A stretch of DNA of 61,848 nt from Candidatus Kaiserbacteria bacterium. GTDB lineage: Bacteria; Patescibacteriota; Minisyncoccia; Phycocordibacterales; UBA2100. The stretch covers positions 175,377-237,224 of the forward strand of contig CAVYCR010000003.1 of the NCBI GenBank assembly GCA_963767115.1. Direction: 5' to 3'. Shown in pieces: positions 18,617-61,848 of the stretch (within the stretch, counting starts at the first letter, position 1; every line of letters begins with the position of its first letter). The translations under genes and the position numbers were made by a program. Below the pieces are notes generated by a model, which was not told the DNA's origin, did no database searches, and worked only from the letters and a program-made list of their open reading frames with translations.

Positions 18617-18705
18617 GGAGAGATGGATGAGTGGTTTAAATCAACAGTTTACTAAACTGTCGGCCCTTCAAAGGCCCGCGAGTTCGAATCTCGCTCTCTC
18701 CGCCA
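18617..18705 (+). tRNA. tRNA-Ser, class II, anticodon ACT as read (18651-18653), CCA encoded
   Basis: GGAGAGA acceptor paired with TCTCTCC, 3-bp D stem, anticodon stem ACAGT/ACTGT with loop TTACTAA, long variable arm CGGCCCTTCAAAGGCCCG, T arm CGAGTTCGAATCTCG, discriminator G. Confidence 0.85.
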
Positions 18706-30628: not shown

Positions 30629-31963
30629 ATGGAAGCACATATAGCAGAAGGGTTGGCACAGATGGGTGTCGCCGCGCCCGAAGAGCAGAAAGTGGTCGAT
30701 ATCAAGTATTGTTTGTACGCACGCAAGAGCACCGAGGATGACGAGCATCAGGCGCTCAGTATTGAGTCGCAGATCAAGGAGATGGCTGCGCTCGCGGCGA
30801 GAGAAAAGTTGGATGTGGTTGAAGTGCGCTCGGAGAAGCACTCGGCTAAGGCCGCAGGTCAGCGACCAGTGTTCCAACAATTACTGGCAGACGTGCGTGA
30901 GGGAAAGTTCAACGGCATCCTTACCTGGGCACCTGACAGGTTGAGTAGAAATGGAGGCGACCTCGGCGTGTTGGTCGATCTCATGGACCAAAAATCGTTG
31001 GTCGAAATCAGAACGTACACGCAGAAATTTACCAATAATCCCAATGAAAAGTTTCTGCTGATGATACTCGGCAGCCAAGCTAAACTTGAAAACGACAACA
31101 AAAGCCTCAACGTAAAGCGCGGATTGAAGGCTCGCGCTGAGATGGGACTCTGGCCCGGCATCGCGCCGACAGGATATCTCAATGACAATCGGAGCGATCA
31201 CAAATGCGAAATCCTTGTCGATCCGATTCGCTCGTCGGTAGTGAAGCAGATATTCGAAAAGGTTGGGCGCGACCGGATGAGCGGTAGAAAAGTGTACGCA
31301 TGGTTGAAATATGAAATCCGATTTACCCATCGCTCCAGCAAACCGCTTAGTTTGAGCAATGTGTATAACGTACTCAAAAATCCCTTCTACTGCGGTATGT
31401 TCGAATATCCGCGCGGGGGTGGTCAGTGGTACACCGGCAAGCACACGCCACTCATCACCAAAGAGCTCTTCCAGCTGGTGCAGGAAAAAATTGCAGAGGA
31501 GAATCGGCCCAAGAAGAAGTTCCAGGACTTCACCTTCACCAAGCTCATGACGTGCGGATACTGCGGTTCCGGTATCACCGCGCAGGAAAAGTCCAAAACC
31601 ATCAAATCAGATGGCTCCGTACGTTGGTATATCTACTACAGCTGCGACAAGTTCAAAGATCACCACTGCAAGAATCCGTTCATTCGCGAGGACAATTTGG
31701 TCATGCTACTGCTCGAACTGATTGATCAGATCTCAATCGATGAAATCGGGGCGCGGCATCTCATCGAGCTGGAGGTACAGCGATACAACCAGCTGCGAGC
31801 CGCGATGGGTCATACCGATAAAGACAAGGCGAGAGATATGGACGTGAGAAAATATGCAAAATACCTCTTGCAGCACGGCGCATCAACAGAAAAGCGTGAA
31901 TTGTTGCAGCATCTCCGCAACCGTATCGTGATGAAAGACAAGAAAATATTTCTCGAAAGTTGA
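30629..31963 (+). CDS. Large serine recombinase (resolvase/invertase catalytic domain + recombinase domain + zinc ribbon)
   Basis: [22 protein letters not shown] (catalytic Ser region), [12 protein letters not shown], a central recombinase domain, CGYCGSGIT...[12 protein letters not shown] zinc ribbon, and a coiled-coil tail. Confidence 0.88.
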
Positions 31964-32083
31964 CCGACACGAAAACGTCGAGCGATTTGCTCGGCGTTTT
32001 CGCGTCTCGACCCCTCTCGGTTGCGAACCGGCCTCGATGAGTTTTGAGGCCTCATGGACGCATGAATGGGCTGCTGACTGCTG

Positions 32084-32155
32084 TGCCCGCGGTAGGAATC
32101 GAACCTACATCTATCCCTTAGGACGGGAGTGCTCTATCCATTGAGCTACGAGGGC
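32084..32155 (-). tRNA. tRNA-Arg (CCT), no encoded CCA, with non-canonical pairs
   Basis: Reverse complement is GCCCTCGTAGCTCAATGGATAGAGCACTCCCGTCCTAAGGGATAGATGTAGGTTCGATTCCTACCGCGGGCA. Anticodon loop GTCCTAA. There is a T5-C68 mismatch in the acceptor stem and C27-T43 in the anticodon stem. Confidence 0.75.
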
Positions 32156-34058: not shown

Positions 34059-34284
34059 CGAGGATTACGCCATCGGCATTTGATCGTGTTCAGACCCGCT
34101 GTACATTTCGTGACCGCGCATGCAGTGGGCGCTTGCATTTTCCCAATCTCATAGTATAATTTCACGTAGATTACAAGGGACTTTGAAATTAGTGTGCCTT
34201 GGCAGAAAGCGCTTATTTACGGAGCCTTTTCTGCTACGGCACACTCGCATCCGCGACTGTGCTTTGTTAGCAAGGAGAACTCTG

Positions 34285-34938
34285 ATGGCAATCATCGGAA
34301 ATCTGCCGGGCGAGCGCTTGGCGGGTCTTGCTGCCGACACCTTCCACAAGGTTCAGCACGGAATCATCACCCTCGACGAATGGGCGTTGTTCAATCAGCG
34401 CAAGAACCCGTTCAGCTTCGAGCGCAATGAGCACGGCCACATCACCGTGACCGTGACCGGCCTCGACCTTTTGGGAGCGCAAGAAATCGCGCGACTCGAA
34501 GCGGCAGGATATCGCCTGAGCGATTGGTCGAAGTCTTGTCTCTTGAGCACGAAGCCGGACAGCTACGACGCCAACCATCGGCTCGTTGCTGGCCAGGTGT
34601 ATAAGATCGCGCTCATGCCGGGCAAAGAGATCGAACGTGACTCCGACCGCACGACCGAAAACCTTCGGAAGCGCGGAATTGAGCACTACGGCTACGGCAA
34701 GCCGCTTGCAGGCATCGTCCCGCGCATTCGCGAGGCGGTATCCGACAAACAGCTTGAGGAGATGGGCATCTGGTACGCCGCCGCGCTTCACGATCCGATC
34801 AAGGATTCTGACGGCGCTCCGGACGTGCTCAATGCGTATCGCTGTGGCGATGGTCGGTGGCTCGACGCGCGTTGGGGCAAGCCCGGCAATCAGTGGTTTG
34901 GCAATAGCGCGTTCGCGTTCCCCGTCCCGCAAGTTTGA
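34285..34938 (+). CDS. DGR target (variable) protein; the C-terminal 43 codons are the variable region
   Basis: ATG 34285 lies 7 nt after AAGGAG (34272-34277). The C-terminus ...DSDGAPDVLNAYRCGDGRWLDARWGKPGNQWFGNSAFAFPVPQV is the VR copy of the downstream template repeat. Confidence 0.85.
   Translation: MAIIGNLPGERLAGLAADTFHKVQHGIITLDEWALFNQRKNPFSFERNEHGHITVTVTGLDLLGAQEIARLEAAGYRLSDWSKSCLLSTKPDSYDANHRLVAGQVYKIALMPGKEIERDSDRTTENLRKRGIEHYGYGKPLAGIVPRIREAVSDKQLEEMGIWYAAALHDPIKDSDGAPDVLNAYRCGDGRWLDARWGKPGNQWFGNSAFAFPVPQV
34806..34932 (+). repeat. DGR variable region (VR)
   Basis: 127 nt, gap-free alignment to 35264-35390. 13 mismatches, all where TR has A. Confidence 0.9.
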
Positions 34939-34988
34939 ACTTAGGGCTTTGTACCTTGGGTCTCCTTTGACCCTTTGCACTTTGTCCT

Positions 34989-35021
34989 CGGCTCCGCAAT
35001 AAAATGCGGAGCCGATTTTTT
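34989..35021 (+). terminator. Hairpin plus T-run downstream of VR (terminator, possibly the DGR target-site hairpin)
   Basis: CGGCTCCGCA-ATAAAA-TGCGGAGCCG (10-bp stem) followed by ATTTTTT, 57 nt after the end of VR. Confidence 0.7.
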
Positions 35022-35263
35022 GTTACAATACGAAAGGTAGTAGGTGAATACGCGGGTGATCAAGGTTGCTCGCTACCGAACCCAGTATCCGTACGTTGAG
35101 AACATTTGCGATCACGGTTTCAAATGGAGGGCGTACGCAGACACTTCAAAAATTGAAGATACTTGGTGTGGAGTGCTGGAGCATTTAAGATGCCGAATAA
35201 GATACAGCTTGGAGATCGGCGCAAGCCTTCGATGAGCAGTGACATGGATGGCACTCCACACGT

Positions 35264-35390
35264 TTCTGACGGCGATCCGAACGTGCTCAATGCGAATCGC
35301 AATGACGATGGTCGGTGGCTCAACGCGAATTGGGACAAGCCCGGCAATCAGTGGAATGACAATAGCGCGTTCGCGTTCCCCGTCCCGCAA
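35264..35390 (+). repeat. DGR template region (TR)
   Basis: Non-coding copy of VR, rich in AAY/GAY codons in the VR frame (SDGDPNVLNANRNDDGRWLNANWDKPGNQWNDNSAFAFPVPQ). Confidence 0.9.
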
Positions 35391-35396
35391 CTCTCT

Positions 35397-35759
35397 TCAT
35401 TTCTCGCCCCGCTTCACAGCGGGGTTGAGTTTTGCAAGATGTCCCTGCCATCCACCGAGCATCTTACCCACCTTGTCCATTTTCTCGGAAAGTGTGATGT
35501 ACTGTTTCGCATCGATCGATGCTGTCTCCCAGAGGATCATCAACAGCAGTTTCAGTGTATCTACTTTCCGCGTTGCAAGCCGTACATACGGCACCTTTTC
35601 CTCGTGCGAGAGAAACGCCGCGGCAGAGACTGCTTCCATCGTTTCTATATACAAACCATCAATCCGTACACCAAGCGAGTACCGATGCACTTTCGGAATG
35701 ATAGAGTGGTACTCATGCCACAACAAATAAGCTTGTTTGACGTGATCCAAAAGAGGCAA
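35397..35759 (-). CDS. avd: Avd-like accessory variability determinant (four-helix-bundle / 23S rRNA IVS protein family)
   Basis: 120 aa, helical. KAYLLWHEY..., SLGVRIDGLYIETMEAV and KMDKVGKMLGGWQGHL fit the Avd/IVS family style. TTG start. It is on the strand opposite TR and RT. Confidence 0.8.
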   Translation of the reverse strand: MPLLDHVKQAYLLWHEYHSIIPKVHRYSLGVRIDGLYIETMEAVSAAAFLSHEEKVPYVRLATRKVDTLKLLLMILWETASIDAKQYITLSEKMDKVGKMLGGWQGHLAKLNPAVKRGEK

Positions 35760-35833
35760 AACCGTGCGGGGGGGGTAGAGTTCATAGAATTGTTTTTACT
35801 CATACCTACGAGGCTATCATATCGGTCGAAAAT

Positions 35834-36778
35834 TTGCTCGCCGCATGGCAAGAGTTCATTCGTGGCAAGCGCAAGAAAGCAGACGTGCAGGACTTCCAAT
35901 ATCGCCTGATTGACAACATCTTCACGCTCCATCGAGAATTGAAGAATAAAACGTATCGCCACGGCGCGTACGAAGCGTTCAAGATCAACGACCCAAAACC
36001 GCGTGATATCCACAAAGCGACAGTGCGCGATCGTCTCGTACATCATGCGATCTACCGGAAACTCTATCCATCATTCGACACCACATTCACTGATGATTCG
36101 TACTCGTGCCGAAGACACAAGGGTACGCACAAAGCGATGAGCCAGTTTCGCGCCTTTGCATATCAAGCAAGTAAAAATCACAAGCACACGGTTTGGATAC
36201 TCAAGTGTGATATTCGGAAATTCTTCGCATCGATAGATCAAGCGATCCTGCTCGATATTGTTGCTCGTTACATTCCAGAAAAGGGCATCAACGCGCTCAT
36301 CGCGGAAGTGGTCGGCAGTTTCCATTCAACGGAACCCGGCAGAGGCCTCCCGCTCGGCAACCTCACCTCGCAACTCCTCGTCAATATCTACATGAACGAG
36401 TTTGACCAATTCGTAAAACACAAGCTCAGGGCAAGATATTATGTGCGGTACGCGGATGACTTCGTTTTCATGAGCACTGATCGAGTGTGGCTTGAAGGAT
36501 TGATTCCATGTATCGCACAGTTTCTCGACGAACACCTCACGCTTTCGCTCCATCCCGACAAAGTCTCGATTGCCACACTTGCATCAGGTGTTGATTTCTT
36601 GGGTTGGGTGCACTTCCCGGATCACCGCGTATTGCGCACCTCGACGAAGCAACGAATGCTCAAACGCGTTCGGGGATTAGAAGAGGAGAGCCCGACCGTA
36701 CAATCGTATCTCGGAATGCTGCGGCATGGGAATACGCACATACTGTCTCAACTGGTGTTGGAACGGGGGCGCATGTAA
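35834..36778 (+). CDS. DGR-type reverse transcriptase
   Basis: RT motifs: KPRDIHKATVRDRLVHH, ILKCDIRKFFASID, LPLGNLTSQLLVNIYMNEFD (DGR-clade GxxxSQ), YVRYADDFVFM, and LGWV thumb. The listed start is TTG 35834. RT-like residues (HTYEAIISVENL) continue upstream without a canonical start. Confidence 0.9.
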   Translation: MLAAWQEFIRGKRKKADVQDFQYRLIDNIFTLHRELKNKTYRHGAYEAFKINDPKPRDIHKATVRDRLVHHAIYRKLYPSFDTTFTDDSYSCRRHKGTHKAMSQFRAFAYQASKNHKHTVWILKCDIRKFFASIDQAILLDIVARYIPEKGINALIAEVVGSFHSTEPGRGLPLGNLTSQLLVNIYMNEFDQFVKHKLRARYYVRYADDFVFMSTDRVWLEGLIPCIAQFLDEHLTLSLHPDKVSIATLASGVDFLGWVHFPDHRVLRTSTKQRMLKRVRGLEEESPTVQSYLGMLRHGNTHILSQLVLERGRM

Positions 36779-51909: not shown

Positions 51910-53040
51910 ATGTTCAGCCAGCAACTTCAATTTCGCTCGACATTCCGCCTGCGACGCCGTGGCATCGCGCGCTGGTGATGGTTTTGTTCGTGCTCGCAAT
52001 CACGGCCGTGCTCGGAGCCGCGATGCTCAGCAGCAGCTCGCTTCAATCGGACGTCAGCGCGACGACGGTCAAATCCGCCGAGGCCGACGCCCTGGCCGAA
52101 TCCGGCGTGCAGATCGCCGAATATTATCTCGCCCATCCCGCCGACAAGCCCGTCGGCTGGCCCAGTTTTTCTTTCACGCCGACCCAATTGCCCAAAGGCT
52201 CGGTCGCCGTGAGCGTCAGCGGAAGCAATCCCTACGTCATCACCTCAACTGCCAACGATTCGACGGATGCCACCGGCGCCATCTCGCGCCATCTCCAGCA
52301 CGGTCGCCGTGAACAGCCAATATGACATCAACGCCGCCCTCACGGCCAACACCGCGATCGCGCTCTCCAGCAAGGTCGCGCTGACGATCAACTCCGTGGC
52401 GCTGGCGGATGTGATCAGCACCGGAACGGTTTCCGGCGCCGCCTCCTTTTCGGTCGACGCCAACTCCGCGACCGGCGGACCCACCGTCGCCAACGTCAAC
52501 ACTTATCAAACCTACACGCTCCCCAGCGGCCAAACCGGAACGGCCCAGAAAATTAGCGGAAATCTCACGATCTCTTCCGCGTCGAGCCTGCCCACGCCGC
52601 TGGCCACGAATCCCGGCGACGTCTATTACGTCTCTGGCAACATCACCTTCAGCCTGGCCGCCGCCACGACTTTCACCGGCACCCTGATCTCCACCGGCAA
52701 CATCGTGCTGAACACCAGCAGCAAAACGCCGACCATCAATCCCGTGACAGGGCTGCCAGCCATCGTCGCGCTGGGCAAATTCACCGCCAACGCCGCCGCC
52801 ACTGGCCTCACGACCAACGGCGTGGTCTTCCTCGGCACCGGCCTGGGCACAACCAACGGAAACACAACCCTGACGCTGCTCATCAACGGCGCCCTGCTGA
52901 TCGACACCGCCGGCATGACGAGCACCTTCGTTGCCCACCTGACCGTCAATTACAATCTGTCCAGCGCCGGCGCCGTCCCAGCATTGAGCACCGTCAACCA
53001 GACGCCCGTGAGCGTCACCGTCACCCAATGGACTGATTGA
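51910..53040 (+). pseudogene. Pseudopilin/PilX-like protein with a long Thr/Asn/Gly-rich beta-helix-like domain; two frameshifts
   Basis: ATG 51910 gives MFSQQLQFRSTFRLRRRGIA. A +2 shift follows in a GC repeat (~51967-51972), then LVMVLFVLAITAVLGAAML... A +10 shift (tandem GCCATCTC duplication, 52278-52297) follows, then ISSTVAVNSQYD...VTVTQWTD* ending at 53040. Confidence 0.65.
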
Positions 53041-53061
53041 TCGCGGGGTCGGCATTTGTAG

Positions 53062-53078
53062 GGTGGGCATTGCCCACC
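53062..53078. repeat. Palindrome GGTGGGCA-T-TGCCCACC (second copy at 60969-60988)
   Basis: Preceded by GTAGG in both copies. The 60969-60988 copy has a 4-nt centre (TACC). Confidence 0.8.
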
Positions 53079-53106
53079 ATCCACGCTGTCAAAACAGGAG
53101 ATCGTT

Positions 53107-53364
53107 ATGAACTTGAAATTCCCATCAGCATCCAACATGCTCGCGATCGTAATTGTCTTGCAGATTCTCATCCTCGCAACGCTCTGGTGCGGCGGTCCGC
53201 TGCAATCGGCCCGAGCACAAATCCCGGATGCCGGCGCCCAGCGCGACGAACAGATCAACCAGGCCAAGCAAACCAACCTGAAGCTCGACACGCTCATCGG
53301 CATTCTTGAGGGCGGCAAACTTCAGATCGAGATCGCCAAGCCCGATGATTCCAAAGGCGGGTGA
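53107..53364 (+). CDS. Small membrane-anchored protein, hypothetical
   Basis: 85 aa with one TM (MLAIVIVLQILILATLW). Intact ORF. Confidence 0.5.
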   Translation: MNLKFPSASNMLAIVIVLQILILATLWCGGPLQSARAQIPDAGAQRDEQINQAKQTNLKLDTLIGILEGGKLQIEIAKPDDSKGG

Positions 53365-53398
53365 ATTCTGTGGCTGCATCGGCGTGAACGCCAATGTT

Positions 53399-53517
53399 CC
53401 CTCTCCATGTACTCAGGGAGAGGGTCAGGGTGAGGGTTCTTCGATTTCGCAGCAACTGTTCGACTGCAGCAAAAATACACCCTCACCCCCGCCCTCTCCC
53501 TGAGTACATGGAGAGGG
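53399..53517. repeat. 119-bp imperfect inverted repeat built from CCCTCTCC...GGGAGAGGG sub-palindromes
   Basis: CCCTCTCCATGTACTCAGGGAGAGGGTCAGGGTGAGGGT (53399-53437) against 53479-53517, with about 3 mismatches. Confidence 0.85.
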
Positions 53518-53548
53518 AGTAAATCGGCTCGAAAGGGTTCCTGTAACG

Positions 53549-54102
53549 ATGAATCGCGTGGGTTCAATTTCACTTCGATCGCGAACGGCGTTCACGCTCG
53601 TGGAGATTCTCTGCGTGATCGTCCTCTTGGCGATCGTCGCGGCGATCGTGCTGCCCGGCGCCGCTTCCGCCGACGAATCCGGCGTCGCCGCATCGGCCGC
53701 GCGAACGCTGATGGCCGATCTTCTTTACGCACAGAGCCGGGCCATCTCCACCCACGCGTGCCACTACGTCGTCTTCGATTCGACCAACGACAGCTACAGC
53801 GTGCAATTTTGCAGCGGGGCGTCGGCCCTTCCCGTGACCGACCCGGAAACCAGCCAGCCGATGAACAGTTCCAATAACCTCACCCGCCTCGGCGGCGCCA
53901 CGATCACGCAGTTCAACGTCGGCCCCAACGCGGGCATCGTCTTTGACGCCATGGGCATTCCGTATGCCTATTCTCCAACCACGCTCACTCCCGCGCTCTA
54001 CGAGGGGCTGCTCGAGCACGCCGGGCACGATCACGGTCAACGGCGCACACCAAGTTGACGATCACCATCGACAACGACAACGGCGCCATGACCGTCCAAT
54101 AA
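53549..54102 (+). pseudogene. GspH/FimT-like pseudopilin, C-terminus needs 2 frameshift corrections
   Basis: Prepilin motif RTAFTLVEILCVIVLLAIVAAI. The C-terminus is split over three frames (...LYEGLLEHAG / GTITVNGA / HTKLTITIDNDNGAMTVQ*). Confidence 0.7.
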
Positions 54103-54239
54103 AACTCCTCGATTGCTTCGGTTCAGGCGCGCTCTGTTTATGCCGAATTTACCGACAGAGGCCTGCGCACTCCGCGGCTCGCGTTCTTGAAATGGACTGA
54201 AAGCAGCCAAAACGGCGGCGTTCGGACCGACATCGCATC

Positions 54240-55619
54240 ATGTTTGGAAAACGTGAAAAACATCAGCCGCTCGCCCTGGACCTGGGCTATGACAGCGTGA
54301 AGCTGCTGCAATTGCAGGTCGCCGGTGGAAGGCTTTCCGCAAAAGCGGCATTCCGCGCACTGCGCTAATCCCGGCGATGCCTATCTGCCCGCCGCCCTCG
54401 ATCTGGCGAAAAATCTCGTCCGCCAGCACGGGCTTGCCGGAAGTCCATGCGTCGCCTGTTTGCCGCGCCACATCGTTCACACCAAAAATCTGCGTCTGCC
54501 GGTGATGCCGGCTTCGGAGCTTACCGCCGCCGTGCAGTTTGAAGCCGTCAATCTTTTTCCCTTCGACACCGAGCAGGCGACCGTGCAGTACCTTGCCGCC
54601 GGCGAGGTTCGCCATGGCGCCGACGTGCGGCAGGAAGTCATCGTCTTCGCCGCCAAAAATGAGGAAGTCGACCAGTTCGTCGATCAGCTTCATCGCATCG
54701 GCCTCGTGCCAGTGTCGCTGGACGTCGAGCCCGTTGCGCCTCTTCCGATCGATCGAACGCTTCGTTCGCCGTCGCGAGGATGAGCAGGAAGTCAGCGTGC
54801 TGGTCGATGTCGGCGCCCAGCGCAGCCAGGTGGTGATCGGCAAGGGTCGCGAGCTGAGCTTCTTCAAGTCCATTGAAGTCGGTGGTCAGCGCTTGAATGC
54901 CGCCGTCAGCCGCAAGCTGGGCATCAGCGTCGAGGAAGCCCGTTCACTGCGAAAACGCCTCTACGCGGAAAACATTTCCGAAGCCGACACGGCGATCGAT
55001 GAGTCCACCCGCCGCGACGCAGTGCGCCAAGCCGTGCTCGACGCGACGCGCAGCACCATCGAAGAACTGGCTCGCGAAATCGCTTTGTGCCTTGGATATG
55101 ACTTCCGTCACGTTCCGCGGCCATCGGCCATAGCGCGTTCGATTGCTCGGCGGCGAAGCGCACGACACGCACTTACTCTCCGTGCTTCAGAGCACTTTGC
55201 CAGTCCCCGTCGAAGCCGGCCGGCCGCTGTTCAATGTCGATCTTTCAGCGGCGAAAATCGTCGCCACTCAAAGCCAGAACAGCGAATGGGCCACCGCATT
55301 CGGACTGGCGTTGCGAAAGACGGAGGGAACCTTTAGTCCGATGGACGGCACGCCAAGGCCGCCGGGAACCTGGCAGCCGGCGTCCAAGGCCGGCCAACCG
55401 CCGGCCGCCGCCCCCGCGCCATCGCCGAGCGTCGCCGCACCGCCAGTATCCACTGAACAGACGTCCCCAACCTCGCCGCGCGGCGCCCTGATCGATCTCC
55501 ATCAACTCATCCCGCAGCATGGCGCTGCCCCGATCGAACCCCAGGTCGGCTCGATCGAAGCCGGCAGCGCAAGAGGCTCTGAATTATCCACCGCCAAATC
55601 GGAGGCCGCCCATGCGTGA
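54240..55619 (+). pseudogene. pilM: PilM-like actin-fold pilus assembly ATPase; 3 frameshifts plus an in-frame TAG
   Basis: MFGKREKHQPLALDLGYDSVKLLQL..., then ANPGDAYLP...FAAKNEEVDQFV...LDVEPVA, then LFRSIERF...VLVDVGAQRSQVVIG...EELAREIALCLGY, then SVTFRGHRP-TAG(55131)-RVRLLGGEAHDTHLL..., then a Pro/Ala-rich tail. Confidence 0.8.
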
Positions 55620-56228
55620 ACTTGAATTCCTCCCGAGATGGTATCCCGGCATGGTACGTCGCCGCCGCGCGTTGATCCTGCAAGTCTGGGCCGCCGCCGC
55701 GCTGGCGCTGGGCCTGTCGATTCAATCGGCCATCGGACATCACGCGCTACGCAACGCCCAGACCAGCCTCAGCGGATTGCAGCAGAAACTCTCGCAGACC
55801 GATGACGATCTGCTCCGCCTCGGCGAGCAGCGCGCCCTTCGATCGCAGTTGCAGCAGCAGAACGAAGTGATCGCGCGCCTCGGCCCGCACGTCCCGGCAG
55901 CGCCATTGATGGCGGCGCTGGCCGAAGACATGCCCCCGCAAACCGCGCTGCTCGACCTCACGCTCAACCAGATCGAAAAGACTCGTCCCGCCTCCGCGCT
56001 GGCGACCGCACGCGGCGACGCCAACGCCGCCGTCGATCGACGCCTCAGCGTCACGCTCACCGGCGTGGCGCCCTCCGACATGGAGCTGGCGAATTTTCTC
56101 GATCGCCTCAACTCGCTCCCCTGCGTGCAGGATATCGCCATGGCCTACGCCAAGGATCGCGACAGGCCGGGCATCTGATGCGCGAATTCTCCATCAACTT
56201 CTGGATCGACTTAAGCGGAGACAATTAA
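55612..56228 (+). pseudogene. pilN: PilN-like protein, one frameshift near 56165
   Basis: MRELEFLPRWYP...RRRALILQVWAAAALALGL (TM) followed by a coiled coil. The C-terminus HLMREFSINFWIDLSGDN* is in another frame. The ATG overlaps the pilM stop. Confidence 0.7.
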
Positions 56229-56277
56229 TCGACCGTCAACGAATCGATTTAACTCCTGCAAATTGCCCGTGAATGTA

Positions 56278-56857
56278 ATGGCCACCGCGAACATCAAAAC
56301 TTCGATCGAGATGTACAAGCGAATGCAGATCGTGATCGGTCTGTCGATGCTCGCCGCCGCGCTGAGCTTCTACTTTCTCGACAGCCGTCCCGGCGTCGCC
56401 CGCATGGCCGCCCTTGGCGACGCCATTCGCGGCAAACAGGAAGAGCTGAACCTCAACGTCGCCCAGGCCAACAACCTTCCCGCAGTCGCCGCAGAAGTTG
56501 CCAAGCTCAAAAATCGGCTCGCCGATTCCAAGCGAGTGCCCAATGGCGCCGAGCTCGGCGAATTCATCCGCGACATCAATACGCTGTCCCAGGAAGCGCA
56601 GCTTCACAAGCAGCGTGTCACGCGCGGCACGGTGCTTCACCAGGGATCTCTATTGCACCCAGCCCATCACGATCGAGTTTGAAGGCGATTTTCTCAACGC
56701 GTTCACCTTCATCCGCGAGCTGGAAAACATGAGCCGGCTCACGCGCATCGACTCGCTGGCGATCCATCAGGTCGACAATTCCAGCGGCCAGGTCAGCGTG
56801 CAGCTCGTCATGGACATTTATTACCGGGAGGATCCGACATGGATTCCCCAGCCATAA
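56278..56857 (+). pseudogene. pilO: PilO-like protein, one frameshift near 56620-56640
   Basis: TM (QIVIGLSMLAAALSFYF), a coiled coil, then PITIEFEGDFLNAFTFIRELENMSRLTRIDSLAI... in a second frame. Confidence 0.7.
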
Positions 56858-57442
56858 ACCAATATGCCGATGCGCTGGCCAAGGCTTGGCGGGCGGATCC
56901 CAAGCGATCCTGGACGCTTCTGGCGCTCTGCGGCGTGCTCGCGATCGTGGTGGGGCGGCTCGCCTTGCATCAATCGCCAAGCACCGCCTCCGCCGCCGCG
57001 CCTCCGGCGCAGCGACCTGGCGGATCGGCAATCGGGCCAAGCCCAGGCCGCGTCTCCACGCCCTTCGGTCGCCCAGTGGGCCAATCAGAAATACAGTGTT
57101 CCCGAGCACAACCTCTTCGTGCCCCGGCTTGAATACTTCCCGCTGGCTGACGGAAATTTATCGGACGACTCCTCCGACGCCGATGCCGCCGCCAAGGCAA
57201 AGTCGGAGCAGGCGGCGGCCGATGAAAAGAAAGAGCGGCAGAAATTAGCGGACCAGCTTCAATCCGAAGCCGCTTCGCTTGAGCTCGAAACCACCATGAT
57301 GGGCCCCACGCCCCGTGCCATGATCAGCGGCGCCTTGGTGGGCGAGGGCGATATGGTCTCCGATTTCCGCGTGGTGAAAATCACCCAGCGTTTCGTGATC
57401 CTGGAAAGCCAGGGCGTGCAGATCGAATTGAAGATGAATTGA
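56839..57442 (+). pseudogene. PilP-like small pilus assembly protein, one frameshift near 57040
   Basis: N-terminal TM (WTLLALCGVLAIVVG), then in another frame ...MISGALVGEGDMVSDFRVVKITQRFVILESQGVQIELKMN*. Confidence 0.55.
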
Positions 57443-57529
57443 AGTTGCAATGAAATGAATCGGCGATCAATTCGCCACAGGTATCGGCCTCGCCGCTGAG
57501 TCGGTTGGCCGATTGCCGGAGGAATTGTT

Positions 57530-59656
57530 ATGACGACATCGAAAAAGGCCAGGGCCTTTCTTTTTTTGGCCGCGGTGTCCGTTTATTCCGGTCATGCGGT
57601 TTCCATCGTCGGCAACGATTCGGCCGCCTATGCCGATGCTCCGGCCGCCGTTGACGCGCCCGCGCCCCCAATCGCTGCGCCGACACCTACAGCCGAAGCC
57701 GTAACGCCAGCGCCAGCCGAAGCCCCCACCGCGCCCGCCACGCAAAACTCCGCCGGTTGGACCCCGCCCAACGATCTCATCGTCGTCGGCCCCAAGGCGC
57801 CCGCGGCCCACATCGTGATGGCCGACAACGGCGCCATCGCCAACCTGAATATCGCAAAAGCAACCGATATGGAAGATGTCCTCCGCTGCATCGCCCAGGT
57901 GACGCATCTGAACATCATCCCCGTCGCCGACGCCCACGGCATCGTCCCCGCGATGGACCTCTACAACGTTACCATCCCCGAAGCCCTCGCCGCCGTGCTG
58001 CACACGAACGATTTGGAGTATCGCCAGGTCGGCAACCTCTATTACATCTATAGCCAGAAGCAGTTGGCCGCCCTCGAAAAGCAGCGGCTGACGACGCAGG
58101 TCTTCACGCTCTATTACACGCCCGCCGACAACGCCGCCGAAATGATCAAGCCCGCGCTGTCAGCCGACGCCCAGGTGAAAGTCAGCAAGGCCGCCATCAC
58201 CGGCATCGACACCGAATCCACCGAAGGCGCCAGCAGCACCACCGGCGGCGGCGGCACCACCGACACCGGCGGAAATTCCCACGCCACGCAAGACATGATC
58301 GTCGTCAACGACTATCCGGAAAATCTCGAAGCCGTCGCCAAAATCATCAAGCAGATCGATCACCGCCCGCAGCAGATTCTGCTCGAAGCCACGATCCTGC
58401 AAGCCACGCTCACCGACGACAACGAAATGGGCGTCGATTTCAGCGTGCTCGGCGGCGTGAATCTCTCCAGCATCGCGCAGGCCCCCTATGCCGCCGGCGC
58501 CTCCGCATCCAACGGCAGCCTCACCAACACCACCGGCACAGCCTCCTCCAGCGCCTCCGGCGCCACCACTGCCGCCCCCGGCGGCACGACCAATTACACC
58601 GCCGCCAACACCGGCTTCACCCAGAACGTCACCCCCGGCGGCCTTCAACTCGGCATCGTCTACGACAATCTCGCCGTCTTCGTCCGCGCCATCGAGCAGG
58701 TCACCAACACTGTCATCCTCGCCAACCCCAAAGTGCTCGCCTGGACAAACAAGAAGGCGAAGTCCTCGTCGGCCGCGAAGACGGATATTTGACGACGACC
58801 GTCACCCAGACGTCGCAAACCCAAACCGTCGCCTTCAACGACACCGGCACCAAACTAGTCTTCCGACCCTTCATCGCCGCCGACGGCTACATCCGCATGG
58901 AGATACCACCCCGAAGACTCCACCGGCGGCACGACGACTCAGGCCAACAACGTCATCCCCTTCAAGGTCACGACGCAGGTCACCAGCAACGTCATGGTCA
59001 AGGACGGCAACACCATCGTCATCGGCGGCCTGTTCCGCGACGACACCCAGACCTCCCGCTCCCAGGTCCCCGTCCTCGGAAACATCCCCTGGCTCGGCAC
59101 GTTATTCCGCTCGCAGGTCGACACGACAACTCGCCAGGAAATCATCATCCTGCTCACCCCGCACATCATCAAAGATGACTCGGCCTACAGCAATCTCTCC
59201 GAAGATCAGCTTAAAGAAGCCGAGAAACTCCGTGTCGGCGTGCGCGAAGGCATGATGTTCTTTGGCCGCGAGCGCCTCGCCGACTCCTCCTACGAAGAAG
59301 CCGTCGCCGAAATGCGCAAGCAAAACCCCGACGTGAACAAAGCCCTCTGGCATCTCGATCTCGCGATCGATCTGAATCCCCAGTTCGTCGAAGCCATCGC
59401 CATGCGTGAACGCCTGACCGGCCAGATCGTCACCGACCCGGACTTCAGCTCCATCCGAAGCTTCGTCCGAAAATCGATCCTCGAAGACGTAACGCCAACA
59501 GATGCCGATGTTCTAGACCCAGGAACATTGCCCGGCCAGCCCGCTTCGCCGACGCAAGCAGCAATCCGTCGCGACCCCGTCCTCGGCCACAACCGAACCG
59601 AGCGACCGGCGCTCCACCGCGTCCGGCAACTAACACGAACCAAAAAAACCCCATGA
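57530..59656 (+). pseudogene. pilQ: Secretin (PilQ/GspD family), two compensating frameshifts (~58742 and ~58908)
   Basis: Signal peptide, N-domains, then the secretin core: ILLEATILQATLTDDNEMGVDF..., ANPKVLA|LDKQEGEVLVGREDGYL...FRPFIAADGYIRMEI|HPEDSTGG...VKDGNTIVIGGLFRD...VPVLGNIPWLGTLFR...EIIILLTPHII. Confidence 0.85.
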
Positions 59657-60908
59657 AAACACCTAAAAAATCATTCTCATCAATCGCCGCCCTCGGCCTG
59701 ACCGCCCTAGCCCTCGCCGGCTGCGCCTCCACCTCGAAGCCGAATCCACCTTCGGCCAAAGAACTCGGCGCCCAGCAGTGGAATGCCACCCGCGCCTCAG
59801 TCCTCCTGACGCTGGCTAAAGATCAATACAACCACGGCAACTTCGACAAGTGCAAGCAGACAATCGATCAAGCCGAGCGCCTCGATCCCAGGAGCGATGC
59901 CATTTCCGTCCTGAGCGCCCAGCTAGCCATCGAGCAGGGCGACATGGACATCGCCGAGCACGAGCTTTCCGAGGCTCGCACCAACAACCCCAAAAACGCG
60001 CAAGCGTTTTATTTAAGCGGCGTCGTCTACCAGGCTGGGACCAACCCCAGCGCGCCTATGAAATGTACACGCAAGCCGCCACGCTCGACTCCACGCAACT
60101 CGCCTACATCATGGCCTGCGCCGAGATGCTCGTGTCGATCGACCGCGCCCCCGAAGCCCTAGCGTTATTGCAGGACAAGGTCTCCCAATTCGAAAACAGT
60201 GCAGTCTTATGTGACGCCGTAGGAATGCTCTTATCCCAACAACATCGCGACGCCGAGGCGATAGACATGCTCCAGCGCGCCACCATCCTGGCGCCCGATG
60301 ACAAAGGCATTAGAGAGCACTACGCCCTGGAGCTTCTGCGACTCCACAACTATCCCGAAGCCGCCGACCAACTCCATCGCCTCCTCTCGCCGCCGGCCCC
60401 CGATCCCTACAATCTCCCCGACCCCACCGAGGTCGCGAAGTCCGATCCCTACGCAACCCGCGCAGACCTCTGGCTGGCCCTAGGCCAATGCCAGATGGAG
60501 ATGCACGACCCACACACGCCGAGCAAAGCTTCGAATCCGCCGTCAGTTTAGACGCCAACAACCCCGCCGCCTGGCGCACCCTGGCAAATCCGCTCTAATG
60601 AATAACGACGCAAAATGCCGCCTGCAAGTCCGCCGACCGCGCCTTGGCCCTGAACCCCCAGGACCCCGAAACGCTGCTCTTCAGCGGCTACGTAAATCTA
60701 AAAACCAACAAACCCCAGCAAGCGTTAATCAACTTCGCCGCCGCCAGCAAGCTCGATCCGAAGGACACGCTGACTCTCTGCATGATGGGCTACGCCTTAG
60801 AGCGAATGAACCAACCCCAGCGCAACAGAGTATTACGCCGAGGCTCTAAAACTCTCCCCGAATGACGACCTGGCCAAAACCCTGATGAACGACGCGCGGA
60901 AGATGTAA
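59653..60908 (+). pseudogene. TPR-repeat lipoprotein (PilF/PilW-like), at least 5 frameshifts
   Basis: Lipobox LALAGCAS. TPR-like helices are spread over all three frames, ending ...LSPNDDLAKTLMNDARKM* at 60908. The ATGA overlaps the secretin stop. Confidence 0.65.
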
Positions 60909-61068
60909 TTGCGACGCCGGGCCACTCTTCGCGTATACCATCGGATTCGCGACATCATCTTCCCGTAGGGTGGGCATACCTGCCCACCAACGACTCATGA
61001 TTGCGCTCGACGCTGGTCCACGGCTCAATGGATCGGTGCGATCCAGACAAAATGCGAAAGCCGGGCAT

Positions 61069-61432
61069 ATGCAAAACGACGATGCCCCCATCGAATTAGC
61101 ATACGGACAACGCCCACGCCGTCGCTTGGTCTTCACCCCATTGATCGTGGCCGTCGCGCACTTCGCCGTCACGGCGTTGTTGTGGCGGCACAGTTTCGAT
61201 CGGTTCGATGACCAACCTGGTGAGCGCGATCGGAAATTCTTCATACCATGCTCCAGCCCCCACTCCCGTTGATCGCATGATTGACTTTGTGGTCAATGGT
61301 CTGATGTTTCCGATTTCCGAGTTAAGGCTCGATCTGAATCCCTACGCCGTCATCGCGCTGAACAGCTTATGCTGGGCTTTCTTCGGCTGGTGCGCTATCC
61401 AAATCTTTCAACGCGCGAAAGTGAAAAAGTGA
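61069..61432 (+). pseudogene. Small membrane protein, one frameshift near 61240
   Basis: MQNDDAPIELAYGQRPRRRLVFTPLIVAVAHFAVTALLW... continues in another frame as ...MIDFVVNGLMFPISELRLDLNPYAVIALNSLCWAFFGWCAIQIF... Confidence 0.4.
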
Positions 61433-61526
61433 CATCCAGGCATCAATGGTATTTGTCGACAGATGCCCCCTTTTCCGTTTCCTTCAATAGCCGGAGGCTA
61501 ACAGCCTCCGGTCCCGGACCCTCCCG

Positions 61527-61848
61527 TCAACCGGAATTTCGATACTCCGCAAAGCCATAATACTTTGGCCGCAAATCCAGCCGGACATGCGACCAAGGCA
61601 CGCCCATTCCCGCCGTGCTTAGCCAGACTGGTTTCGTATCCAGCCGCTCCTCCATCGCTTGTCCGACCGCAATCCAAAGCTCATTTGCCTGCGCGGAGGA
61701 TGCTTCGCGGGCACCGATAGGGGGACTTTCTTTTCCGTCACCAGGGGGATAAGAGGTCACCTCGAGACGAAAAGAGCGAGACGAAAGAGAAGTGACCTGC
61801 TCTATGCTCGACCAGCAGAAAGGGCTGCTGATTTCCCGCCTATACCGA
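61527..61848 (-). CDS. Hypothetical protein, 5' end beyond the window
   Basis: The minus-strand frame is open from the window edge to TGA 61527-61529 (...VTSYPPGDGKESPPIG...WLSTAGMGVPWSHVRLDLRPKYYGFAEYRNSG*). I recognise no family. Confidence 0.4.
   Translation of the reverse strand, partial: RYRREISSPFCWSSIEQVTSLSSRSFRLEVTSYPPGDGKESPPIGAREASSAQANELWIAVGQAMEERLDTKPVWLSTAGMGVPWSHVRLDLRPKYYGFAEYRNSG

Follow-up and report, generated by a model that had tools for sequence, protein, structure and literature searches.

What is encoded between positions 34150 and 36778 of the window, the whole 61,848-nucleotide stretch of a Candidatus Kaiserbacteria contig (CAVYCR010000003.1) analysed here, and if it is a diversity-generating retroelement (DGR), is the element complete and how is it organized? 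The original prediction had called the locus a complete DGR. We consider, with a probability of about 0.94, that the segment is indeed a complete chromosomal DGR, belonging to a lineage restricted to the Patescibacteria, or Candidate Phyla Radiation (CPR). This reading was supported by the adenine-specific differences between a template repeat (TR) and a variable repeat (VR), by a reverse transcriptase (RT) of the DGR type, by an Avd homologue, by the C-terminal location of the VR in its target gene, and by the presence of the same cassette in relatives. The genes and repeats that carry the argument are as follows.

34285–34938, forward strand: target gene, 217 aa (open reading frame and translation), with the Shine-Dalgarno sequence AAGGAG at 34272–34277
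34806–34932, forward strand: VR, 127 nt, matched to the TR without gaps, with 13 of 13 differences on TR adenines
35264–35390, forward strand: TR, 127 nt with 30 adenines, a non-coding copy
35397–35759, reverse strand: avd (accessory variability determinant), 120 aa, located between the TR and the RT gene
35780–36778, forward strand: RT gene, with a conserved frame from about 35780 and a Pfam RVT_1 match (E = 9e-23)

The two repeats were compared again base by base, the codons being read in the frame of the open reading frame 34285–34938. The ungapped alignment with an offset of 458 was reproduced, and the VR bases facing the 13 adenines were C, G, T, T, G, G, G, C, G, G, T, T and G, exactly as first listed; none of the 13 mismatches fell on a TR base other than A. 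The ten affected TR codons, read in the VR frame, were GAT, AAC, AAT, AAT, GAC, AAC, AAT, GAC, AAT and GAC (six AAY and four GAY), and every changed adenine occupied position 1 or 2 of its codon. The VR had been described as the last 43 codons of the gene, which was right within one codon: starting with the last base of codon 174, it covers codons 174–216 of 217 and stops one codon short of V217, which is followed by TGA. The identity between the repeats breaks off sharply at both ends. The final 31 nt of the VR, looked at for the boundary element known as initiation of mutagenic homing (IMH/IMH*), are identical to the TR and GC-rich. A blastn search with the TR showed neither a second VR nor another TR copy in the window.

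The repeat could in principle be an ordinary segmental duplication which diverged by chance beside an unrelated RT, and the existence of the repeat, nothing more, speaks for this. With 30 adenines per 127 nt, the probability that 13 mismatches all fall on A by chance is 6.3e-10 (hypergeometric). A duplication would have to account for this concentration of the differences on one base in one copy (P = 6e-10), for the independent recurrence of the adenine bias in at least nine relatives and for the location of the TR copy, which is non-coding and lies within a conserved structured RNA. We give this explanation hardly any credence.

The RT frame runs for 332 codons without a stop, and all catalytic motifs are intact. 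The protein is collinear with Brt of the Bordetella phage BPP-1, taken from the annotated phage record, with 31% identity over 318 aa (BLASTP, E = 5e-49). The best match among solved structures was 8ub7, the Bordetella phage DGR RT (E = 1.2e-41). In the 8ub7 chain the corresponding motifs read IGSLTSQ and YMDD, and the first of them is matched by the GxxxSQ motif of the window RT. The motifs LPLGNLTSQ and YADD and the Avd-gene sequence KMDKVGKMLGGWQGHL, named in the original prediction, were all found, and GLPLGNLTSQ and YADD were invariant in eight relatives. An origin of the enzyme in a group II intron, a retron or a defence RT system is suggested by its best NCBIfam match, group_II_RT_mat (146.6 bits), in a collection apparently lacking a model for DGR RTs; this score is far under the cut-off of 300. 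Group II intron and retron RTs matched at about 1e-20 as compared to 1e-41 for the BPP-1 enzyme, so that by match scores the DGR RT was preferred by 21 orders of magnitude. Furthermore, no intron or retron RNA was found by Rfam in the window, the GxxxSQ motif resembles that of the phage enzyme, and the Avd gene and the TR/VR pair are adjacent. An RT of non-DGR type is thus very improbable.

The assignment of the Avd-type gene was upheld by matches to bAvd, to DivGenRetAVD and to BPP-1 Avd. All 15 Avd relatives tested matched bAvd, the best at E = 3e-16, and a profile built from them aligned with BPP-1 Avd across the VGxxLGxW motif (hhalign, E = 5.5e-4). The same profile gave no match against PDB sequences.

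The window is cellular DNA, with an RNase P RNA, four tRNAs and a LepA up to 82% identical to those of Candidatus Kaiserbacteria/Paceibacterota genomes. At least 588 related RT loci were found in species-representative genomes, each of which is either labelled Patescibacteria or left unclassified. The order target(+)–TR(+)–avd(−)–RT(+) was common to the window and to all nine fully read relatives, and avd was on the minus strand in all 85 related RT loci read. The cassette neighbourhoods differed from one genome to another (RecG/patatin, FtsK/RecA, a type II secretion ATPase, NusG/UDG). The informative relatives possessed their own TR/VR pairs with 12–22 mismatches each, essentially all at adenines. 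Among target proteins at least 90% identical, the variable positions lay in the VR in 20 of 20, 13 of 13, 13 of 14 and 13 of 14 cases in four clusters. In the 94 homologues compared, the mean entropy was 2.46 bits at codons whose first or second position is a TR adenine, and 0.81 bits at the remaining VR codons (Mann-Whitney p = 2.7e-6). Because near-identical target proteins differ almost only in the VR, and because the entropy sits on the TR-adenine codons, the family is being diversified in nature; for the copy in the window itself, we infer activity from sequence.

Two irregular relatives were seen. In L001/L002 (5566–6584) the RT is broken, being split into two frames, and contig L009 contains two TR/VR pairs with adenine-only mismatches, corresponding to tandem cassettes.

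The TR-containing RNA looks like a separate transcript of approximately 400 nt, for which the following elements were recognized.

35021–35029, forward strand: extended -10 element TGnTACAAT, candidate promoter of the TR-containing RNA
35036–35263, forward strand: structured 5' domain of the DGR RNA, about 230 nt upstream of the TR, with covariation
35151–35159, forward strand: 5' strand of a duplex, AATTGAAGA, pairing with 35394–35402
35394–35402, forward strand: 3' strand of the duplex, TCTTCATTT, starting four bases after the TR end and holding, on the complementary strand, the stop codon of avd
35403–35434, forward strand: stem-loop just 3' of the TR (terminator scan), with a stem of about 9 bp and a U-rich tract behind it

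A TGnTAnnnT-like box was present directly after the target terminator in all nine close relatives, with slight variations in spacing, and the T, A and T of the hexamer were invariant across 37 loci. The 5' domain was conserved at the nucleotide level in approximately 95 loci (nhmmer, E down to 1e-63), in which the proteins are only about 60–65% identical. In the whole aligned RNA, comprising the 5' domain and the 3' stem-loop, RNAalifold predicted 65 pairs, 51 of them with compensatory changes. When the nine-pair duplex bracketing the TR was added to this structure, 94.7% of the cells were paired and the covariation score was 0.547; shuffled alignments scored 0.257 (none of 500 reached the observed value) and slid partners about 0.12. 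The duplex itself, AATTGAAGA/TCTTCATTT, had 89% of its cells paired and 12 compensatory cells, and none of 500 shuffles was as good. The window RNA folded alone formed the same helices, with a minimum free energy z-score of −1.97.

The 3' stem-loop was found in approximately 75 loci, with compensatory changes in eight of its nine pairs. It is a putative Avd-binding stem-loop and/or the terminator of the DGR RNA; a "9-bp stem-loop just downstream of TR" has been reported for 207 DGRs (bioRxiv 10.1101/2023.10.23.563531). The final 12 or so codons of avd (tail ...LNPAVKRGEK; 35397–35434, minus strand) are antisense to this stem-loop and its U tract. The Avd tail conserved in relatives, KQNSP..GEK, may be dictated by the RNA element and not by the function of the protein.

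Some other candidates in this region were set aside. A local CTTC/GAAG hairpin, considered as an alternative to the duplex bracketing the TR, had zero covariation support. A tertiary pairing between CCAGTATC and GATACTTGG was uninformative because both strands are nearly invariant. The 63-codon open reading frame at 35044–35235 was rejected as a gene because it had no Pfam match and the region is a covarying RNA; the other open reading frames over the TR were rejected likewise. No Rfam family corresponded to the DGR RNA, at the gathering threshold or at E ≤ 1, and a match to c-di-GMP-I-GGC (E = 0.33) was dismissed, being on the wrong strand.

We propose the following course of events. The RNA of approximately 400 nt would be transcribed from the extended -10 box at 35021–35029, and would comprise the structured 5' domain of about 230 nt, the TR, the duplex pairing an upstream strand with 9 nt just after the TR, and the 9-bp stem-loop with its U tract. 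If the RT-Avd-RNA particle of the Bordetella phage is a guide, RT and Avd would bind this RNA and copy the TR to cDNA, with random misincorporation opposite adenines. The cDNA would then replace the VR, and up to about 19 codons with an A at position 1 or 2, mostly AAY or GAY, could be recoded in the C-terminal beta-strands of the target.

What is the target? Three further elements frame its gene.

34155–34160, forward strand: putative -10 box TATAAT of the target promoter, read from the sequence at the start of an upstream block conserved in relatives
34193–34245, forward strand: long hairpin within the target gene's 5' leader, an imperfect inverted repeat also present upstream of the target genes of relatives
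34988–35021, forward strand: intrinsic terminator of the target gene, with an 11-bp stem (34988–35015) and a T run (terminator scan)

The leader hairpin, placed between the TATAAT box and the Shine-Dalgarno sequence, has 21 predicted pairs, 11 of them with compensatory changes in an alignment of 14 loci, and the window sequence folds into it as well. At the place of the terminator, nine relatives had a GC-rich hairpin with a T run behind it.

The target protein had no Pfam or NCBIfam match and, by inspection, no obvious hydrophobic N-terminal or membrane segment. Its 285 close homologues, of about 217 aa, are all unnamed and come from Paceibacterota/Parcubacteria. The wider family comprised at least 1228 representatives of 50% clusters in a profile search, with a conserved core at residues 42–217 approximately. 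The full-length AlphaFold model reached a predicted local distance difference test score (pLDDT) of 88.6 and a predicted template-modelling score (pTM) of 0.76; the core-only model, made from a more diverse alignment, reached 96.9 and 0.91, respectively, and showed the same secondary structure. The C-terminus, for which the original prediction had raised a C-type-lectin-like fold, was thus modelled confidently, but such a fold was not detected at significance. With Foldseek, the models had no significant match in the PDB and in BFVD (best E 0.27–1.2, TM about 0.1–0.26), and no DGR variable protein was among the best 50 matches listed in any of these searches. The top match of the core model, non-significant, was the C-type lectin-like domain of DEC205 (E = 1.2, TMq 0.26), and rhodocetin, a snake-venom C-type lectin, was at rank 21. 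Sequence and profile comparisons with PDB chains and with Mtd revealed no link. In our reading, a C-type lectin fold that has diverged very far could accommodate the predicted order of elements, beta-alpha-alpha-beta...beta-beta-beta. "Novel C-Lec variants" were expected by Roux et al. for the CPR targets (PMC8144416), and the CPR VR classes were left unassigned by Wu et al. (PMC5758913).

Many target homologues with no RT or avd in the flanks read were also observed (L006, L007, L012, L014, L016, L017, L019–L023 and L204–L206), and in one strain (L204–L206) an RNase H gene (RNase_H/RVT_3) lies directly 3' of the target homologue. Such genes may be orphan or trans-diversified targets.

At the junction between avd and the RT gene, the window contains one more conserved element.

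35768–35775, forward strand: homopolymer of eight G (G8), between the divergent avd (start 35759, minus strand) and RT genes

This was the sole run of G or C of at least 7 nt in the window. A tract of 7–14 G (mode 9) occupied the same junction in approximately 80 of 91 related loci, and most exceptions were contigs cut off there. The tract length differed within the strain in three of the four strains having several contigs from different samples, the alleles being G8/G11, G9/G10, and G9/G11 with a 2-nt deletion at the tract edge. In these variable strains the tract region was the main or only indel site in 3–6 kb of DNA otherwise 99.8–100% identical. Homopolymer sequencing error is a caveat on these lengths, yet the tract is present in the assemblies of many projects and the alleles are common to several contigs. 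We consider the tract genuine and hypermutable.

Several roles were tried for it. A Shine-Dalgarno mimic was rejected because the distance to the nearest start (4 to at least 21 nt, mode 13) is too variable and too long. A location of the tract always within the RT open reading frame, after the start codon, gave no general rule: among the 26 loci with no canonical in-frame RT start downstream of the tract, 12 had a start candidate next to it, in frame in three. An arrangement of tract, -10 box and leaderless ATG, in that order, fitted only about 14 of 62 loci, and a role as promoter spacer fits some loci only.

A number of observations weigh against the reading of the locus as a complete DGR. 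The ends of the DGR RNA, its promoter and its priming site are inferred. The scores of the Avd product against Pfam bAvd (E = 2.3e-8) and NCBIfam DivGenRetAVD (E = 5.6e-13) are both under the curated cut-offs. The target could not be recognised as a C-type lectin by structure, sequence or profile searches. The sole GC-rich hairpin 3' of the VR starts 56 nt downstream and has a terminator-like T run; inverted repeats (hairpin or cruciform) downstream of the VR are present in only 34% of DGRs according to Wu et al. 2018 (PMC5758913), and the target terminator at 34988–35021 could double as such a structure. No sister sequence of the target protein of the window was found, and it forms a singleton cluster. 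Finally, no ATG, GTG or TTG occurs in the RT frame from the preceding stop up to TTG 35834, itself within the conserved IISVENLL motif, and the GTG at 35764, beside the tract, does not share the RT frame with G8 but would share it with G7 or G10.

These last points also bear on the possibility that a genuine DGR is currently switched off or decaying here, the VR differences being the record of past homing only. The broken RT of the relative L001 goes in the same direction, as does the fact that just 13 of the 30 TR adenines differ. On the other side, the RT is open for its whole length with intact catalytic motifs, nothing is broken in avd, the TR, the promoter box or the RNA helices, and 13 of 30 falls in the range of the relatives. 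The conserved N-terminal residues of the RT are encoded from about 35780, and an in-frame ATT is present at 35789. In most of the clade an ATG opens the RT gene 13–21 nt past the tract, the N-terminus being M-S-R-I-Q-F-x-H. The subclade of the window has the tract 9 nt nearer and has lost the ancestral ATG, where GTT 35780 now stands. A canonical in-frame RT start before IISVENLL was likewise missing in 26 of 68 unique loci; in those 26 an NTG adjacent to the tract was in frame in three, out of frame in nine (window included) and absent in 14. Such a frequency suggests an unusual but conserved translation start rather than decay, and we judge it unlikely that the element is inactive.

We return to the complete DGR and to what its G tract might do. 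The most attractive hypothesis, built on sequence comparison, is a contingency switch: slipped-strand changes in the length of the poly-G:C tract would turn the expression of RT and/or Avd on or off, and would thereby gate hypermutation stochastically. The fuller picture, in which such a switch goes together with a permuted RNA scaffold and a target fold not recognisable as C-type lectin, is possible but in our opinion rather doubtful. The literature search returned no paper linking DGRs to homopolymer tracts.

Outside the cassette, a gene for a large serine recombinase (CcrB/XisF-like, E = 6e-39) is located at 30629–31963, 2.3 kb upstream, beside a tRNA-Arg (32083–32155); together they may mark an integrated element. 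A tRNA-Ser with the unusual anticodon ACT was found at 18617–18705 (ARAGORN). From about 52000 to 61848 the GC content rises up to 61–63%, as compared to approximately 45–58% elsewhere in the window, and the GC skew is strongly negative, down to −0.25.

The DGR type is already known and very common in ultra-small Patescibacteria, and the cassette itself is ordinary (PMC8144416, PMC5758913). The main finding is therefore confirmatory: the lineage, of which hundreds of relatives are known, gains a further member. The details of the DGR RNA, of the target fold and of the poly-G tract appear undescribed in the literature searched; the permuted RNA scaffold, the unmatched fold and the hypervariable tract are lineage-wide and not specific to the window. 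The RNA model, with its promoter, its 5' scaffold, its duplex bracketing the TR and its Avd-type stem-loop over the avd stop, could guide the reconstitution of a DGR other than that of Bordetella, and shows a possible rearrangement of the RT-Avd-RNA particle. A large target family whose structure is predicted very confidently, with no significant match, is relevant to the view that every DGR variable region is carried by a C-type lectin fold. The hypermutable G tract where avd and the RT gene meet suggests one concrete way in which an organism with a tiny genome might control a mutagenic enzyme; if the contingency-switch reading were true, targeted hypermutation would itself be stochastically gated in Patescibacteria populations.

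How does the locus compare with known systems? In homopolymer contingency loci (poly-G in the Neisseria porA promoter, PMC3639595; poly-G inside the reading frames of hmbR/hpuAB, PMC3786947), a long G:C tract is likewise located at the 5' end or the promoter of a gene. As in these loci, the G tract of the cassette is kept as a tract and its length varies between species (7–14) and between near-identical strains (8/11, 9/10, 9/11). Unlike theirs, its place is not constant: it falls within an open reading frame in some cases only, and its spacing to a start codon varies. The genes under its control would be those for a mutagenic RT and a cofactor, and the organism carrying it is an uncultured Patescibacterium.

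Among DGRs, a CPR-restricted clade (clade 2) with domain-less targets was described by Roux et al. in 2021 (PMC8144416), and one architecture, B3, makes up 90% of CPR DGRs in Wu et al. 2018 (PMC5758913). The cassette shares with this lineage the patescibacterial cellular host, a target with no recognisable domain or obvious membrane segment, and an order and orientation of avd and TR which differ from the prototype; nothing in these sources, as far as they were available, excludes membership. Going by the text of Wu et al., the layout in the window presumably corresponds to B3, and the VR presumably to one of UVR1-6.

The prototype DGR of phage BPP-1 (mtd-avd-TR-brt) differs in several respects. 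The cassette in the window is chromosomal and lies in a cellular genome, avd is inverted and placed between the TR and the RT gene, and the target has no similarity to Mtd and is not a tail fibre. In BPP-1 a 140-nt spacer lies downstream of the TR, whereas in the window about 230 structured nt lie upstream and only about 45 nt separate the TR from the U tract. The poly-G tract at the avd/RT junction is a further difference from BPP-1. Both elements possess an RT, the two being 31% identical over their full length, an Avd homologue and a TR of about 130 nt with an AAY-rich design, differing from a C-terminal VR only at adenines. They also share an RNA duplex joining the sequences up- and downstream of the TR and a stem-loop just after it, and these two structures correspond in the window to the cPRT-stop duplex and the Avd-binding stem-loop of other DGRs (bioRxiv 10.1101/2023.10.23.563531).

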